Sequence record: NC_042084.1
Length of the DNA: 44,829 nucleotides
From: Escherichia phage VB_EcoS-Golestan
Strand: one strand, 5' to 3'
Position numbers and translations under genes: made by a program. Positions 4,419-44,309 of this stretch are shown here, piece after piece. A model generated the notes under the pieces. It saw only the letters and a program-made list of their open reading frames with translations, did not search any database and had not been told where the DNA came from. The first letter of the stretch is position 1. Every line of letters begins with the position of its first letter.

Positions 4419-4759
4419 TTGCATTTCTCGTCGTATGTTTGTTGTAACTGCGACAGACGATTACCGGCTGTCATCTCGTCCATAGAAGGCCCAGCGCCTG
4501 TGTCCATAAAGAACAGCGGAACAATCAGGAATGCGCCTGTAACACCGAGTACAACGTTAGTACCTATTTGCTTATTAACACGGTGCGTAGCGTTGGCTTG
4601 AGCTTGTTTTGTCGTGGCGATTCTCGATAGTAACTGATTACATGTTGCCGTTGTATCCCCCGCCTGATAAACCTGTAAAGCTGGGTCTGGCAACGACCTT
4701 ACGCAACCACTCAAACAAACGGCTACAACACCCGCTACTGCTAATTTAATATATTTCAT
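4415..4759 (-). CDS. lipoprotein with internal hydrophobic helix (possible superinfection exclusion)
   Basis: Signal peptide plus lipobox (MKYIKLAVAGVVAVCLSGC). A second hydrophobic segment is VVLGVTGAFLIVPLFFM. It lies on the opposite strand inside the head module. Confidence 0.7.
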   Translation of the reverse strand: MKYIKLAVAGVVAVCLSGCVRSLPDPALQVYQAGDTTATCNQLLSRIATTKQAQANATHRVNKQIGTNVVLGVTGAFLIVPLFFMDTGAGPSMDEMTAGNRLSQLQQTYDEKCK

Positions 4760-4857
4760 AGTTCACCATTACCCGTGTCAATTTCACCAATACCACTACA
4801 AGCCCAAAGAAACATCACCGCATCAACTGCAATTACTACTGAAATAACGACTAACAT
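4756..4857 (-). CDS. 33-aa membrane micro-protein
   Basis: MLVVISVVIAVDAVMFLWACSGIGEIDTGNGEL. SD GAGGAGG lies 5 nt upstream. Its TGA overlaps the lipoprotein ATG (ATGA). Confidence 0.4.
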   Translation of the reverse strand: MLVVISVVIAVDAVMFLWACSGIGEIDTGNGEL

Positions 4858-4884
4858 GACGGCCTCCTCGTTTCGATGTAATGA

Positions 4885-4913
4885 ATAGTACCCTATTATA
4901 TTGGTGTGTGCAA
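4885..4913 (-). promoter_or_regulatory. class I promoter TTGCAC-N17-TACTAT with conserved leader
   Basis: Exact hexamers and 17-nt spacer. The leader reads TCATTACATCGAAACGAG then SD. It drives the lipoprotein cassette. Confidence 0.6.
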
Positions 4914-14078: not shown

Positions 14079-14120
14079 AACATAACTCCTGATTTGAGAT
14101 AACATCGTCGGTGTAAGTGA

Positions 14121-14149
14121 ATAGTACGCTATTATATTGGGGTGTGCAA
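14121..14149 (-). promoter_or_regulatory. class I promoter TTGCAC-N17-TACTAT
   Basis: Same hexamers and spacing as 4885-4913. It drives the Imm-like / phosphoesterase / phosphatase / kinase cassette. Confidence 0.6.
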
Positions 14150-31235: not shown

Positions 31236-31264
31236 ACTATAATAGCTAACTATTCATGTGTCAA
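31236..31264 (-). promoter_or_regulatory. class II promoter TTGACA-N17-TATAGT (SSB operon)
   Basis: Consensus -35 with 17-nt spacer. The palindrome lies in the spacer. Confidence 0.6.
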
Positions 31265-31453
31265 ATAAAATTTTGCAATAGGGATTATGTTCTCGAAATT
31301 AAGCATATTGGCCGGTTCGAACTCATCCTCTACAGGGTAGTATCGCATCATGGTACCGTTCAAGAACGTGAACGATTCCGAGTGTAGATACCCATCCCAG
31401 CGCCATACCATCAAAAAATCTTTATCAGTCGGCATTTCATTTACTTGAATCAT
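31250..31453 (-). CDS. hypothetical protein (67 aa)
   Basis: SD GGAGGA precedes ATG 31453, which has an ATGA overlap with the nuclease stop. Confidence 0.5.
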   Translation of the reverse strand: MIQVNEMPTDKDFLMVWRWDGYLHSESFTFLNGTMMRYYPVEDEFEPANMLNFENIIPIAKFYLTHE

Positions 31454-34100: not shown

Positions 34101-34128
34101 ATCTTCACCTCTCGTTTGGTATGGGTTA

Positions 34129-34157
34129 ACTATAATAGCGAACTATTCACATGTCAA
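34129..34157 (-). promoter_or_regulatory. class II promoter TTGACA-N17-TATAGT
   Basis: Consensus -35. Divergent from the XRE-gene promoter. The palindrome lies in the spacer. Confidence 0.6.
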
Positions 34158-34221: not shown

Positions 34222-34437
34222 ATGCAACCATCTGAACTAGGCATTCGTGTAGAACAACGCCGTAAAGAACTCGGCATCTCCCAGCGCCGTCTGGCGGTCC
34301 TGACCGGCGTTTCCCAGGGCGCAATTAACCAGCTGGCTCTCGGTGTAACTCAGGACGTCCGCCCGGCAACGTTGTTTAAACTGGCGGAAGTGCTGGAAGT
34401 AGACGCTAAGTGGCTGGCGTTCGGTGAAGGGGCTTGA
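34222..34437 (+). CDS. XRE/Cro-type HTH transcriptional regulator
   Basis: LGISQRRLAVLTGVSQGAINQLALG is a classic HTH_3 pattern. It is a lone rightward gene in a divergent promoter region and has its own terminator. Confidence 0.8.
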   Translation: MQPSELGIRVEQRRKELGISQRRLAVLTGVSQGAINQLALGVTQDVRPATLFKLAEVLEVDAKWLAFGEGA

Positions 34438-37494: not shown

Positions 37495-37525
37495 TTTCAT
37501 ATCTCCTGTTTGTTTGGTGAAAACG

Positions 37526-37554
37526 AGTATAGGATAGCGGGAATGTAAAAGCAA
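37526..37554 (-). promoter_or_regulatory. promoter TTGCTT-N17-TATACT
   Basis: Upstream of the AlpA-like HTH gene and divergent from the leader-2 promoter. Confidence 0.45.
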
Positions 37555-37601
37555 CTAAAACACCACACAAAGTTACTAAGATACAAAAGATGCTACTGGT
37601 A

Positions 37602-37630
37602 TTGACTTTTACTAAAAAATATGGTAAGCT
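37602..37630 (+). promoter_or_regulatory. promoter TTGACT-N17-TAAGCT (leader module 2)
   Basis: Paralog of 4980-5008. Confidence 0.6.
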
Positions 37631-37636
37631 CAGCCT

Positions 37637-37858
37637 GAGCTTGTGAAGTATGAACAAGCGACCGCGGCGCGCGGCAGGCGAAACGAGCACGTGTAGCGTG
37701 TGGAGTGAGGCTCGCTAGCGCGTTTGGGAGGCCCAAAGTCTATTGTAAATCCCACCTAAATATCTAAGTTACTGATTTGCCGTAGGTCAGAACCGCAAGC
37801 TCACTCACTCACTCACTCACTCACTCTTGGTGCCTTCGGCACCACGTTCGTTTCGTTT
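37637..37858 (+). ncRNA. putative ~220-nt leader/terminated transcript 2
   Basis: Paralog of leader 1 (identical block 37634-37671). It contains (CTCA)6 and ends at the hairpin 37829-37843. Confidence 0.35.
37800..37826 (+). repeat. tetranucleotide repeat (CTCA)6 + CTC
   Basis: Counted directly. Noncoding and inside leader 2. Confidence 0.95.
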
Positions 37859-37860
37859 CG
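37829..37860 (+). terminator. hairpin GGTGCC-TTC-GGCACC + U-containing tail (end of leader 2)
   Basis: Read directly. The tail is ACGTTCGTTTCGTTTCG. Confidence 0.4.
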
Positions 37861-37910
37861 CTCGCCATCCCATTAAACGAAAGAATCACAACGGCAACGT
37901 AACTATTCTC

Positions 37911-37939
37911 TTGCACACCCCAACATAATAGGATACTAT
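37911..37939 (+). promoter_or_regulatory. class I promoter TTGCAC-N17-TACTAT
   Basis: Exact hexamers. The leader reads TCACTTATCGAAACGAG then AGGAG. Confidence 0.6.
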
Positions 37940-37973
37940 TCACTTATCGAAACGAGACAGAGGAGTGAGGGTT

Positions 37974-38165
37974 ATGTTTAAGAAGGGTCAGTTGGTTAAA
38001 ACTAAACGCGGAGGGCAATATGTATTAGTGTTGCAGGACGAGAGCGAGTATGACGAGGATAATCTGGTTGACGTATGGGGTCTGGTAAGAAAGAAAACTG
38101 GGTTCGCCTCACGCGATAATTTAGAACTCATCGGCAACAATTTTAAATTCAAAGGGGTGAAGTGA
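37974..38165 (+). CDS. hypothetical protein (63 aa)
   Basis: AGGAG lies 8 nt before ATG 37974. It is the first gene after the promoter at 37911. Confidence 0.55.
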   Translation: MFKKGQLVKTKRGGQYVLVLQDESEYDEDNLVDVWGLVRKKTGFASRDNLELIGNNFKFKGVK

Positions 38166-39172: not shown

Positions 39173-39340
39173 ATGACGTTTAAAGAAGCGGTATCATACG
39201 GGTACTTAAGACGTAGAGGAAATTATAAAGGTGCTCCGTGGGTGTGCAATGGGCGCCAGTTCGATACCTGGAAAGAGGCACTGGCGGAAGCCAATGAAAT
39301 GTTAAAAAGAGACTGGGAGCAACAGAAAAATGGACAGTAA
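39173..39340 (+). CDS. hypothetical protein (55 aa)
   Basis: First gene after the promoter at 39113. GGAG lies upstream of ATG 39173; GTG 39158 is an alternative start. Confidence 0.45.
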   Translation: MTFKEAVSYGYLRRRGNYKGAPWVCNGRQFDTWKEALAEANEMLKRDWEQQKNGQ

Positions 39341-39782
39341 AAACGAAGTATTCGAGTACCTGATTGACCAACTACGTCAGCAGGTAAATAACAACCAGTG
39401 CGAAGACCTGGCGCAAGAGGTGCAGTCGCTTAAGAATCGGTTACGTGACGCGTCGGCGCAGATTAAGGAGTTGCATAAAGAGCTTGAGTATATTGGGGGC
39501 GAGTACAGACGAGCACTTGATTACGATCTTAGCGATGCACCTAAGCAATCTGGTTGCCGTAAGGGATACACCCAGAAATCATGCTGGATTGAGTGGTCAG
39601 GAGGAGCTTGCCCTGTGCCACGCGGAACACTTGTCGATGTTATTTACCGCGACGGGGAAACCTTATGTGGCTTGCCTGCTGATGAGCTTAACGACACGGA
39701 AAGAGATGCTAGCGTCTGCTTTTGGCGACACAATGGTATGTCTAATGACATAGTTCGTTACCGTAAGGCCGTGCGCCAATGA
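39330..39782 (+). CDS. hypothetical protein (150 aa; coiled-coil N-terminus, Cys-containing C-terminus)
   Basis: Largest ORF of this operon. The C-terminus reads SCWIEWSGGACPVPRG...VCFW. Confidence 0.55.
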   Translation: MDSKNEVFEYLIDQLRQQVNNNQCEDLAQEVQSLKNRLRDASAQIKELHKELEYIGGEYRRALDYDLSDAPKQSGCRKGYTQKSCWIEWSGGACPVPRGTLVDVIYRDGETLCGLPADELNDTERDASVCFWRHNGMSNDIVRYRKAVRQ

Positions 39783-41174: not shown

Positions 41175-41439
41175 GCTATTCTGGTTTGTCGTAATGCTTT
41201 CAATTGGCGCTTCGTCCCTGTTCAACGTGTATAACGAACACGTGGACGACGGGCTGTTCGGGCGTGTGCTTTATATTCTGACTGCTATTGTCTGCGCCGC
41301 CGGATGTATCCACCTGTTACAGGGCAGCATGTCACCGACGCTGCCTGAGACATTAATCACATTAGTTGCGCTGCGTCAGATTCGTCAGGCGTGGCTGTCG
41401 TACGGAGGGCATAAGCGTGTCTCGAAACATTTCAGATAA
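41167..41439 (+). CDS. second lysis membrane protein (holin/antiholin-like, two TMDs)
   Basis: MTELFWFVVMLSIGASSLF and VLYILTAIVCAAGCIHLL. It lies between the holin and endolysin genes. Confidence 0.5.
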   Translation: MTELFWFVVMLSIGASSLFNVYNEHVDDGLFGRVLYILTAIVCAAGCIHLLQGSMSPTLPETLITLVALRQIRQAWLSYGGHKRVSKHFR

Positions 41440-41902
41440 TGGGTTGCATTTCACCGCAGCATTTGAGGGATTCCGCGGAACCGCGTATCGCGCTACACCG
41501 AACGAGAAGTACCTTACGATTGGGTATGGTCACTACGGGCCGGACGTTAAGGCGGGGCAGACCATCACACCGGGACAAGGACTCCTGTTACTGAATCGTG
41601 ATATGGCTAAGGCTGTAGCCGCAGTTGATGCGGCAGCACACCATTCGCTTACACAGGCACAGTTCGACGCAGTGTGCGACCTGGTGTATAACGCTGGTGC
41701 CGGTGTGATTGCGGCTACTACTGGCACAGGTAAGGCACTGCGTTCTGGTGACGTCACGACTCTGCGGGCTAAGCTGGCGCTGTTCATCAACCAGAACGGC
41801 AAACCGATACTTGGACTGCGTCGTCGTACCGCCGGTCGTCTGGCGCTGTTCGACGGTAAACCGTGGCAGGAGGCGGAGGCTATCGGGAGGGCTGTTAGAT
41901 GA
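41417..41902 (+). CDS. endolysin (T4-lysozyme-like, GH24)
   Basis: FTAAFEGFRGTAYRAT...LTIGYGHYG gives an E-D-T catalytic pattern. GTG 41417 follows GGAGGG. Confidence 0.8.
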   Translation: MSRNISDNGLHFTAAFEGFRGTAYRATPNEKYLTIGYGHYGPDVKAGQTITPGQGLLLLNRDMAKAVAAVDAAAHHSLTQAQFDAVCDLVYNAGAGVIAATTGTGKALRSGDVTTLRAKLALFINQNGKPILGLRRRTAGRLALFDGKPWQEAEAIGRAVR

Positions 41903-41963
41903 TGGAAGAAAACTGGGACGTATAGTAAACTTACTCCCACGCTGCTTGTGCTTGCACCACCCG

Positions 41964-41996
41964 AAACCCGGACCGCGAATCCGGGTTTTATTTTAC
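41964..41996 (+). terminator. terminator after the endolysin gene
   Basis: AAACCCGG-loop-CCGGGTTT + TATTTTA. Confidence 0.65.
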
Positions 41997-41999
41997 CAA

Positions 42000-42028
42000 T
42001 TGACACCTAAGACTAATCCGACGATACT
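42000..42028 (+). promoter_or_regulatory. promoter TTGACA-N17-GATACT (orphan, drives a small RNA)
   Basis: Consensus -35 with 17-nt spacer. It lies between two terminators with no ORF downstream. Confidence 0.5.
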
Positions 42029-42034
42029 TAAATC

Positions 42035-42099
42035 ACCTCCTGTTCCATCCCTCTGCTCTCCAGTTTTATCCCGGCCCTGACCCAGCCGGGATTTTTTTT
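42035..42099 (+). ncRNA. putative ~65-nt CU-rich small RNA with anti-SD sequence
   Basis: Orphan promoter plus GC hairpin and T8 terminator, with no start codon inside. The 5' region is ATCACCTCCT. Confidence 0.45.
42070..42099 (+). terminator. strong terminator CCCGGC-loop-GCCGGG + T8
   Basis: Read directly. It ends the putative small RNA. Confidence 0.75.
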
Positions 42100-42121: not shown

Positions 42122-42150
42122 TTGACTATTACCCTCGACCCTATTATATT
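42122..42150 (+). promoter_or_regulatory. promoter TTGACT-N17-TATATT
   Basis: Followed by the leader TACTCCATCGACAACGAG, related to the class I leaders. Confidence 0.55.
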
Positions 42151-42183
42151 TACTCCATCGACAACGAGAACGGAGTAGAGAAG

Positions 42184-42432
42184 ATGAGTAACGTACTGAC
42201 AATCGCAATAACCGAGGAACTTGAAGCCAAATGTATCGCATGGACTATGGGTAATGACCCGGTTGCTATGCGTAAATTTCCAATGAAAATCACAGACATC
42301 GAAGCATTCAAAGATGCACAACTGATGGCACGCATCGCCGTTAGTAACCTGAGCAATAGCATCCCTGCGGACGCGTTCTGGTTCGCTGCAATGCAGACAC
42401 TTAAAGCAGCATATGCAGGAGAGAAGAAATGA
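42184..42432 (+). CDS. hypothetical protein (82 aa)
   Basis: First gene after the promoter at 42122, with SD GGAG upstream. Confidence 0.55.
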   Translation: MSNVLTIAITEELEAKCIAWTMGNDPVAMRKFPMKITDIEAFKDAQLMARIAVSNLSNSIPADAFWFAAMQTLKAAYAGEKK

Positions 42433-42962: not shown

Positions 42963-43242
42963 AATCACAATCGCATCTCTCGAGCGCCGTATTCTGGTGC
43001 TTGAGTCGGAGAAACAGACGTTAGGCGGGCAACTGTCGATTAACGGTGAGTTTCAGCTGGAGGCGTTCCGTATACTCCTCGGCGTTATGAAGCAGGAACC
43101 CAGCGCATACGCGGGAGTGTTCCTTGACGAGGAAGGTTCGCAGACACTAAGTTACTACGCTACCGAAGAAGAATTAGCGTTCGACGGCCCCGCGGTATCT
43201 ATCCCGCTGTTCGATAACTGGATGGTGTACGACTATGACTAA
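42955..43242 (+). CDS. hypothetical protein (95 aa)
   Basis: The ATG at 42955 is preferred over the track start 42946. Confidence 0.5.
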   Translation: MPKITIASLERRILVLESEKQTLGGQLSINGEFQLEAFRILLGVMKQEPSAYAGVFLDEEGSQTLSYYATEEELAFDGPAVSIPLFDNWMVYDYD

Positions 43243-43420
43243 AGCGCCTGAACCAGTAGTTATCGATGGCGTCCTGTGGAAGCCATACTCGGTTTACCAC
43301 ATCGACGCCGACGGGAAGAAGTTTAGCTTCTACATTTTTGCAATTAGCCGTGAGCACGCCGCTTGTGTGGTTGACGATATTCGAGAAACGGCGTGGCTTG
43401 GTGATGAGATAGCGGGGTGA
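43235..43420 (+). CDS. hypothetical protein (61 aa)
   Basis: ORF overlapping the upstream gene by 8 nt. Confidence 0.5.
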   Translation: MTKAPEPVVIDGVLWKPYSVYHIDADGKKFSFYIFAISREHAACVVDDIRETAWLGDEIAG

Positions 43421-44215: not shown

Positions 44216-44309
44216 GTACATCCCGCCCAATCCCCTTATATAATCTATTTAGACGCGTAGGGCGCGTCTGGTGCGCTCTGATGGTCAGACGCATATGCAA
44301 GGGGATTCT

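Follow-up and report, generated by a model that had tools for sequence, protein, structure and literature searches.

A conserved promoter-terminator unit next to the lysis genes of Guernseyvirinae phages is a candidate gene for a small RNA

The genome of Escherichia phage VB_EcoS-Golestan (sequence record NC_042084.1; 44,829 bp, the whole of which is taken here as the window) is identical to that of vB_EcoS_SCS44 (ON001686.1), a Kagunavirus of the Guernseyvirinae, and the phage is called SCS44 below. Its lysozyme (endolysin) gene ends at position 41902, and a run of small genes starts at 42184. The 281-bp gap between them harbours a sigma-70-type promoter (P1), a CU-rich tract and an intrinsic terminator (T2), which together we call the unit and which we propose as a candidate gene for a small RNA. 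The small genes, to which no function is assigned, lead to terS at 44295 and, across the record ends, to the packaging and structural genes. In GenBank the locus is unannotated, or marked with the terminator alone (phi135) or with nothing but a second promoter, P2, lying downstream of it (AG11). In some of the records spurious open reading frames (ORFs) are annotated across the locus (AG11_59A, Bas72_0073).

Anatomy of the locus

The features of the locus are given in Table 1. A first-pass annotation of this DNA, made from the letters alone, had described a promoter of the form TTGACA-N17-GATACT flanked by two terminators, with no start codon between the promoter and the second of them. The promoter and both terminators, T1 and T2, are present, and the + strand is devoid of ATG, GTG and TTG from 42029 to 42099. 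The predicted RNA, running from A42035 to the U tail, is about 64-65 nt long and folds to the terminator hairpin only; T2 has a folding energy of -13.8 kcal/mol, and the prediction leaves the 33 nt 5' of it unpaired.

Table 1. Features of the intergenic locus and their coordinates in the window
Feature	Position	Strand	Description
T1, accessory terminator-like hairpin	41963-41996	+	10-bp hairpin followed by UUUUAUUUU; fold prediction
P1, sigma-70-type promoter	42000-42028	+	TTGACA (42000-42005), 17-bp spacer, GATACT (42023-42028); 10/12 consensus match
CU-rich single-stranded 5' region of the predicted RNA	42035-42067	+	inferred start A42035, 7 nt past the -10 hexamer
Conserved block CUCCUG	42037-42042	+	
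Conserved block CAUCCCUCU	42046-42054	+	flanked as (Y)CAUCCCUCU(R) in the alignment
Conserved block GCUCUCC	42055-42061	+	GCUC(U)CC across versions
Conserved UUUUAU	42064-42069	+	directly 5' of the T2 hairpin
T2, intrinsic terminator	42068-42099	+	8-bp stem AUCCCGGC (42068-42075)/GCCGGGAU (42085-42092), 9-nt loop CCUGACCCA, U8 tail
P2, second promoter	42122-42150	+	TTGACT, 17-bp spacer, TATATT; 10/12 consensus match; 22 bp past the T2 U tail
5' untranslated region (5'UTR) and start codon of the first P2 gene, AUCGACAACGAGAACGGAGUAGAGAAGAUG	42157-42186	+	near-invariant in both genera

The base composition of the tract was compared with that of 44,523 segments of 35 nt on the transcribed strands of the SCS44 genome. 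The segment at 42038-42072 holds the genome maximum for these strands, with 29 pyrimidines out of 35 against a mean of 16.2 (standard deviation 3.0), about 4 standard deviations above. The remaining 12 top pyrimidine-rich segments are all antisense to coding sequences.

The match of P1 to the promoter consensus is unremarkable alone: eight sites in the SCS44 genome exhibit 10/12 matches, and a scan of 3.5 kb at a threshold of 9/12 returned 5 sites where 3.7 were expected. Its -10 hexamer GATACT and its 17-bp spacing, together with the -35 hexamer, resemble the T7 A1 early promoter, which we take to have the same -10 hexamer and spacing and a near-consensus -35. This likeness suggests that P1 may be a strong promoter recognised by the host polymerase. 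The two differ in what they serve, since T7 A1 drives a long early operon, whereas P1 is predicted to give a terminated 65-nt RNA.

A protein-coding reading of the unit was rejected on the + strand, where a start codon is absent and indels between the genera shift every frame. On the minus strand, AGGAGGTGAT provides a perfect Shine-Dalgarno sequence, but just a 6-codon ORF (MEQEVI) follows it, and by hand translation this ORF is not kept as such in the AG11/ER22-type Jerseyvirus versions.

Conservation and context in the Guernseyvirinae

A BLAST search with the 189-bp intergenic module as the query found it in 443 phage records of Kagunavirus and Jerseyvirus, nearly all of them matched over the full length. 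Identity amounts to 94-100% in Kagunaviruses and about 76% in Salmonella Jerseyviruses. As a capsid protein at least 80% identical is present in about 460 records, the module appears to be present in almost the whole subfamily. None of 5,426 complete E. coli genomes gave a match, and a pattern scan of 185k species genomes returned chance matches in unrelated taxa only; an origin from the host or from a prophage was rejected on these two scans.

For a closer comparison, 48 unique sequences lying upstream of a 21-nt anchor in the 5'UTR of the first P2 gene were gathered from GenBank phages, IMG/VR and metagenomes, and 45 of them contain a recognisable unit. The first-pass annotation had named in advance a loss of the promoter hexamers in relatives as one result that would speak against a small-RNA gene. 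The hexamers are kept: GATACT is invariant, TTGACA is found in 43 of the 45 unit-bearing versions from the two genera (the exceptions being TTAACA and TTGACG), and the spacing is always 17 bp, with about half of the spacer positions different between the genera. Homology with the relatives starts at the -35 hexamer and is preceded by several unrelated upstream contexts. The stretch from the -10 hexamer to the first block has neither a fixed length nor a fixed sequence (TAAATCAC, AAACCTG or GGTGTCG), so that conservation resumes at the predicted start.

The part of the unit predicted to be transcribed keeps CUCCUG, (Y)CAUCCCUCU(R), GCUC(U)CC and UUUAU, the last of them standing directly 5' of the hairpin, as UUUUAU or UUUAU, in nearly all versions. 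The U tail has at least seven U in every version (U8 in SCS44, U7 to U17 in relatives). The tract is about 80% pyrimidine in both genera, and the consensus fold consists of the terminator hairpin only, with about 33-35 unpaired nt ahead of it. The CU-rich single strand, the U-rich stretch and the hairpin with its U tail are all conserved across both genera. In the T2 stem, one pair is changed on both sides (C:G in 10 sequences, U:A in 7) and separates the genera; pairing is found in 92.8% of the cells, against 21-50% with the partner columns slid. Between the genera, DNA identity is 79% for P1 (100% for its hexamers), 82% for T2 and 63% for the CU tract, while for the neighbouring genes it is 47-57% (holins) and 71% (endolysin). 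This pattern is what a functional transcription unit predicts, and judging from the aligned sequences the unit is real and conserved.

It is nevertheless conceivable that P1 is inactive and that its hexamers are conserved for unrelated reasons, the region being simply the 3'UTR of the lysis operon with its terminator. Matches of 10/12 are not rare, with eight in the genome, the endolysin stop codon forms part of TTGACA in many Kagunaviruses, and the -35 substitutions TTAACA and TTGACG do occur, in two natural variants. Such an account has to accommodate 12 hexamer positions that are unchanged between the genera next to a half-changed spacer of strictly 17 bp, and a -35 hexamer that is kept also where it is separate from the stop codon (Jerseyvirus, SCS44-type phages). 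We consider it improbable.

T1 belongs to an insert that varies among the phages and separates the endolysin stop from P1 (41903-41996 in SCS44). T1 with the 60 nt before it is present in a minority only (SCS44, K1ind3 and fEg-Eco06), the insert being 66 nt longer in K1ind3 and fEg-Eco06, and the insert is missing from Bas72, from the Jerseyviruses and from most metagenomic relatives. In Jerseyviruses such as S10 the endolysin stop lies 1 nt before TTGACA, and in Bas72-type Kagunaviruses TTGACA itself includes the TGA that ends the gene, in both cases without T1. The earlier description of an orphan unit between two terminators is thereby limited to SCS44 and does not extend to most relatives, from which T1 is missing. 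It also follows that in most relatives T2 ends the lysis operon as well, and that the CU tract is there the 3'UTR of the lysis mRNA too. As for the insert itself, it starts with an 8-codon mini-ORF, ATGATGGAAGAAAACTGGGACGTATAG (41898-41924), which overlaps the endolysin stop, and its GAUGGAA is, in the folded 3' end of the lysis mRNA, the complement of UUCCAUC in the CU tract.

On the downstream side, the block that is inherited as a whole takes in P1, T2, P2 and the 5'UTR. P2, labelled as a promoter in the AG11 GenBank record and sharing CCCTATTATATT with other phage promoter regions, is the predicted promoter of the downstream small-gene operon and, as the compared sequences indicate, is inherited with P1 and T2 as a single module. 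The 5'UTR AUCGACAACGAGAACGGAGUAGAGAAGAUG is near-invariant between Kagunavirus and Jerseyvirus, more so than the capsid gene (84% DNA identity), an invariance that is firm only for the BLAST-derived sequences, since some members of the set were collected with the 21-nt core as the anchor. In the gene that follows, at least 10 unrelated N-termini are exchanged for one another, with the junction at the ATG. Folded alone, the P2-initiated 5'UTR is unstructured. A covarying 5'UTR hairpin over the start of the first P2 gene was considered; it seemed compensatory between two sequences and failed across the 48 swapped-gene variants.

One variant exhibits the promoter and the terminator with different contents. 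The metagenome contig L060 (ERZ1643246 NODE-617, 44.7 kb) contains at 4651-4813, on the minus strand, a P1-like TTGACA-N17-CATACT and a kept T2. The insert between them is different and structured, about 90 nt long, with ACCUCCUGUUUCAUCC fused directly to the same terminator; it has zero matches in the phage collection. This variant indicates that the unit evolves as a promoter-terminator cassette.

Part of this context would suit a module that acts in cis, with tandem promoters and no trans-acting RNA. T2 would be the terminator of the lysis operon, and the CU tract a 3'UTR or leader that keeps the region unstructured for termination; in read-through transcripts the tract could fold onto the ribosome-binding site of the first P2 gene, so that translation would come only from P2-initiated mRNA, while P1 would be auxiliary and its short product a by-product. 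In the Jerseyviruses and most Kagunaviruses, where T1 is lacking and the endolysin gene ends next to or within the -35 hexamer, the lysis mRNA always carries the tract in its 3' end. The minimum-energy folds of the read-through transcripts of SCS44 and S10 pair the tract with GGAGUAGAG..AUG, and both the unstructured 5'UTR of the P2 transcript and the inheritance of the whole as one block fit in with such a module. However, it leaves unexplained the invariant hexamers at 17-bp spacing around a free spacer, the intact unit behind T1 in SCS44-type phages, and the promoter-terminator unit with different content in L060. Read-through should moreover be rare, T2 being a strong terminator, and the z-score of the read-through fold is just -1.66 in SCS44, the score of S10 being dominated by the terminator. 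We regard the cis-acting module as possible, though unlikely.

A promoter predicted to be strong, followed some 65 nt on by a strong terminator, beside lysis genes and ahead of terS and the morphogenesis genes, also calls to mind the late-promoter leader of lambda, PR'-tR' (6S RNA). In a leader of this kind a constitutive promoter would give a short terminated RNA for as long as RNA polymerase is unmodified; once modified by a phage antiterminator, the polymerase would read through T2 into the genes for packaging and structure. Homologues of the lambdoid nin region (NinH, DUF2737) are indeed encoded downstream. Yet no Pfam family of Q or another antiterminator was found among the 29 proteins scanned, mostly small ones, and no -10-like pause element was seen on inspection of the initially transcribed region. 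P2 follows right after T2, which makes antitermination unnecessary, and the unit is preceded, not followed, by the lysis genes. A leader of the PR'-tR' kind is thus extremely improbable.

The match to the anti-Shine-Dalgarno sequence

The first-pass annotation had further pointed to the 10-mer ATCACCTCCT (42032-42041) as identical to 10 nt of the 3' end of 16S rRNA. This identity stands, given that the 3' end of E. coli 16S rRNA is, as we take it, GAUCACCUCCUUA, which contains ATCACCTCCT. Its conservation in the family does not: the identity is restricted to Kagunavirus, which has (AUC)ACCUCCUG. The Jerseyvirus versions have CCUGCUCCUG or GUCGCUCCUG where SCS44 has AUCACCUCCUG, all of them reading GCUCCUG, and CCUCC is found nowhere in their tract. 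The 16S tail is the same in E. coli and Salmonella, and a true mimic should accordingly be conserved in the phages of both. Furthermore, with transcription predicted to start at A42035, the AUC of the 10-mer (42032-42034) would fall outside the RNA.

Statistically, about 0.09 exact matches are expected for one given 10-mer in 2 × 44.8 kb by simple arithmetic, and allowing up to one mismatch the SCS44 genome contains 2 matches against 1.7 expected. The composition of the tract and the way in which the unit is conserved across relatives exceed chance; the 10-mer and the 10/12 promoter match, each taken singly, do not.

It could still be argued that the RNA amounts to the 16S anti-Shine-Dalgarno sequence in a soluble copy, which, in competition with ribosomes, would occlude ribosome-binding sites globally, that of the holin included. 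Apart from the 10-mer itself, all three blocks carry CUCC- or CUCU-type complements of GGAG, ACCUCCUG is retained in L060, and the sub-threshold Rfam matches RF02278 and RF02837 described below have a UCUCC-type seed beside a terminator; small RNAs with C-rich anti-Shine-Dalgarno motifs are a known kind. The absence of the CCUCC core from Jerseyvirus in spite of the same host 16S tail does not agree with such a copy, nor do the three of ten bases preceding the predicted start, the statistically ordinary 10-mer, and the modest correlation of pairing energies with those of the true anti-Shine-Dalgarno sequence (r = 0.44-0.57). As to the holin, CCUGGAGG does lie upstream of its gene (40866), but the pairing of CUCCAG with CUGGAG proposed in the first-pass annotation could not be upheld: it comprises 6 bp only, and it is gone in the Jerseyvirus S10, in which the best duplex energy is -2.0. 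A soluble copy is very improbable in our judgement. The 16S identity appears to be a lineage-specific coincidence, at most a variant seed, and the conserved trait, as far as the aligned versions tell, is the general CU-rich, GGAG-complementary character of the tract and not a copy of the rRNA tail.

A related proposal, that an abundant pyrimidine-rich RNA from one of the strongest promoters of this strictly lytic phage serves as a general Shine-Dalgarno decoy, in competition with 16S rRNA for purine-rich ribosome-binding sites, is likewise a long shot. If it were true, ribosomes would be shifted from host to phage messages, or lysis and the translation of early genes would be timed, and this would represent an RNA-based control of translation initiation in place of a one-RNA, few-targets logic.

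A candidate small RNA and its possible targets

We tentatively favour the reading that the unit is a conserved gene for a functional, trans-acting small RNA, and put its probability at roughly 0.45. Its product is most likely a phage small RNA that is new but has a layout of known type, about 64-65 nt in length. The host sigma-70 RNA polymerase would initiate at P1, near A42035, then transcribe the 33-nt unstructured tract of about 80% pyrimidine, and stop at T2. The C/U blocks CUCCUG, CAUCCCUCU and GCUC(U)CC would most likely base-pair with ribosome-binding regions rich in purines and reduce translation. The sole target candidate that can be named is the initiation region of the first P2 gene, GGAGUAGAGAAGAUG, which the RNA might reach in trans, or in cis on transcripts reading through T2; targets in the host are just as possible. 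For most relatives the RNA would count among the 3'UTR small RNAs that have a promoter of their own, and in SCS44 the T1 insert would make it free-standing.

Duplex energies of the single-stranded tract with every annotated initiation region, 78 in SCS44 and 61 in S10, were calculated and compared with those of composition-matched shuffles. The values are -14.7 in SCS44 (shuffles -13.7 ± 0.5) and -14.0 in S10 (shuffles -12.7 ± 0.6). Since any CU-rich RNA pairs with purine-rich sites, we judged these energies uninformative. The top duplexes fall on orthologous genes, 39330 in SCS44 and 15808 in S10, with different pairing registers. The two genes (39330-39782, and 15808-16305 in L033) have only an N-terminal coiled-coil half in common (MxxKNEVFEYLIDQLRQQVN...); each gives the strongest or second-strongest predicted duplex, which was treated as an effect of composition. 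At the first P2 gene, blocks 2-3 of the tract can form base pairs in both genera, with GGAGUAGAG as well as with the GAUG that holds the start codon. As a specific target, this adjacent initiation region was rejected, being not significant and exhibiting mixed substitutions. The longest perfect complementarity in S10 is a single 10-mer, at chance level, and the longest matches overall are of 9-10 nt.

A number of observations weigh against a trans-acting small RNA. The pairing with phage ribosome-binding sites is just about 2 standard deviations better than that of the composition-matched shuffles, and a search for perfect matches found no complementarity of 10 nt or more to the transcripts of SCS44 itself. 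The duplex with the adjacent initiation region has p ~0.1 against dinucleotide shuffles over 45 variants, and this region ranks only 11th among the 78 genes of SCS44 and 11th among the 61 of S10. The natural variants C15A, C17A, C19A and U23G would break the proposed helix, while G21A and C15U are compatible with it. The CU tract as a whole is just 63% identical between the genera, and as the diversity amounts to two clades, the single compensatory pair in T2 represents one evolutionary event. The position of the endolysin stop inside TTGACA in many Kagunaviruses could contribute to the conservation of the -35 hexamer there. Finally, the lone RNA sequencing (RNA-seq) study of a Kagunavirus, made on vB_Eco_K1B4 (PMC12645636; data in PRJNA939978 / PRJCA028359), was at the gene level only, without intergenic analysis, and its bead-cleaned libraries capture RNAs of 65 nt poorly. 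K1B4 is a near relative of ST20 and XY1, two phages in which the module is present.

The candidate small RNA can be set beside several known systems. The predicted layout (promoter, unpaired seed region, U-rich stretch, hairpin and U8) is that of Hfq-type small RNAs, a type that the first-pass annotation had also named. The Hfq-dependent small RNAs of enterobacteria (RybB, SgrS, RyhB, and CyaR with its C-rich anti-Shine-Dalgarno seed) are likewise 60-90 nt long and transcribed from a sigma-70 promoter of their own. RybB carries a conserved single-stranded seed at the very 5' end, as predicted here. Also shared are the U-rich stretch before a GC-rich hairpin and the tail of at least 7 U, a combination reportedly called the "Hfq-binding module" by Otaka, Ishikawa and Aiba, and a pyrimidine-rich seed would suit the masking of ribosome-binding sites. 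Unlike these RNAs, the predicted one is encoded by a virulent phage and lacks Rfam homology, and its seed region is unusually long (33 nt) and of low complexity.

In the Jerseyviruses and most Kagunaviruses the position of P1, which adjoins or overlaps the endolysin gene's end, with T2 common to the lysis operon, resembles that of 3'UTR small RNAs of the DapZ/MicL type. The differences are that T1 separates the unit in SCS44 and that P1 is located at the stop codon, not deep in the coding sequence. Short promoter-terminator units are likewise known among phage small RNAs (lambda OOP, the PR'-tR' 6S leader, P22 Sar, DicF, AgvB/AsxR), and the lambda 6S leader is also found beside lysis genes. 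These examples belong to temperate phages or prophages and are mostly antisense to, or sponges of, defined partners, whereas the unit has no antisense partner, comes with no Q-type antiterminator among the 29 proteins scanned, and is absent from the 5,426 E. coli genomes.

We found no description of the predicted RNA in a search of the literature. In Rfam, no family reached its threshold in a scan of 2 kb or in a focused scan by E-value, and the sub-threshold matches are driven by the terminator. The best are RF02278 (Betaproteobacteria toxic small RNA; 25.0 bits against a threshold of 50) and RF02837 (anti-hemB; 19.6 against 49.5), with PsrR1 also among them, and the alignments cover UCUCC and the terminator only. 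RF02278, RF02837 (Burkholderia anti-hemB) and the UCCC RNAs of S. aureus (RsaE/RNAIII) have C- or CU-rich complements of GGAG beside a terminator, like the tract. They come from other taxa, and their motifs usually reside in hairpin loops, in contrast to the unstructured 5' region of the predicted RNA. The Rfam matches are functional analogies, not homologues.

Several further elements were noticed in the window. A repeated motif, GTGAATAGTAC(C/G)CTATTATATTGG, occurs at 4876-4904 (+), 14112-14140 (+) and 34127-34155 (-), with a partial copy at 42138-42152; P1 does not contain it. The copies are intergenic and stand ahead of operons, and the motif holds a palindrome AATAG..CTATT that overlaps the -10-like TATTATAT. 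Its 15-nt 3' half has 5 matches against 0.8 expected. It equals the consensus reported as a "phage RNA polymerase promoter" for the Kagunavirus fBC-Eco01 (PMC9825357). No phage RNA polymerase is annotated, and an operator for a phage helix-turn-helix (HTH) regulator seems more likely than a promoter for a phage polymerase. Near-consensus sigma-70 promoters stand back to back at 34146 (+) and 34157 (-), with 10/12 and 11/12 matches, flanking an HTH gene (34222-34437), and a promoter with 11/12 matches lies at 31264 (-), at the 5' end of a small gene (31250-31453). The divergent gap 37500-37974 contains no promoter match of 10/12 or better.

Among the neighbouring genes, the lysozyme is annotated at 41444-41902 (152 aa), against about 161-166 aa in relatives, with a start inside the preceding holin gene; its start codon in SCS44 may have been mis-called, 41366-41902 being an alternative extent. 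The fEg-Eco06 orthologue of the gene at 43235-43420 (61 aa) bears the label "RNA polymerase inhibitor, similar to 2LMC_A" (T7 Gp2). This label is unsupported by sequence: there is no Pfam match, and the best PDB match, to an unrelated protein, has an E-value of 0.66. An exact-protein look-up for contigs derived from RNA-seq returned genomic contigs only.

To our knowledge, the regulatory RNAs of strictly lytic phages are barely charted. Among the E. coli and Salmonella phages that serve in therapy and biocontrol, Kagunaviruses and Jerseyviruses are some of the most commonly isolated. If the unit is not a real small-RNA gene, the locus is still a portable expression module, made of a terminator, a promoter and an invariant 5'UTR behind which the first genes are swapped. 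If it is one, the annotation of more than 400 genomes would be corrected, and this family would offer a compact and testable candidate for translation control by a phage: an RNA of about 64 nt from one promoter, with natural variants in phages of two host genera.

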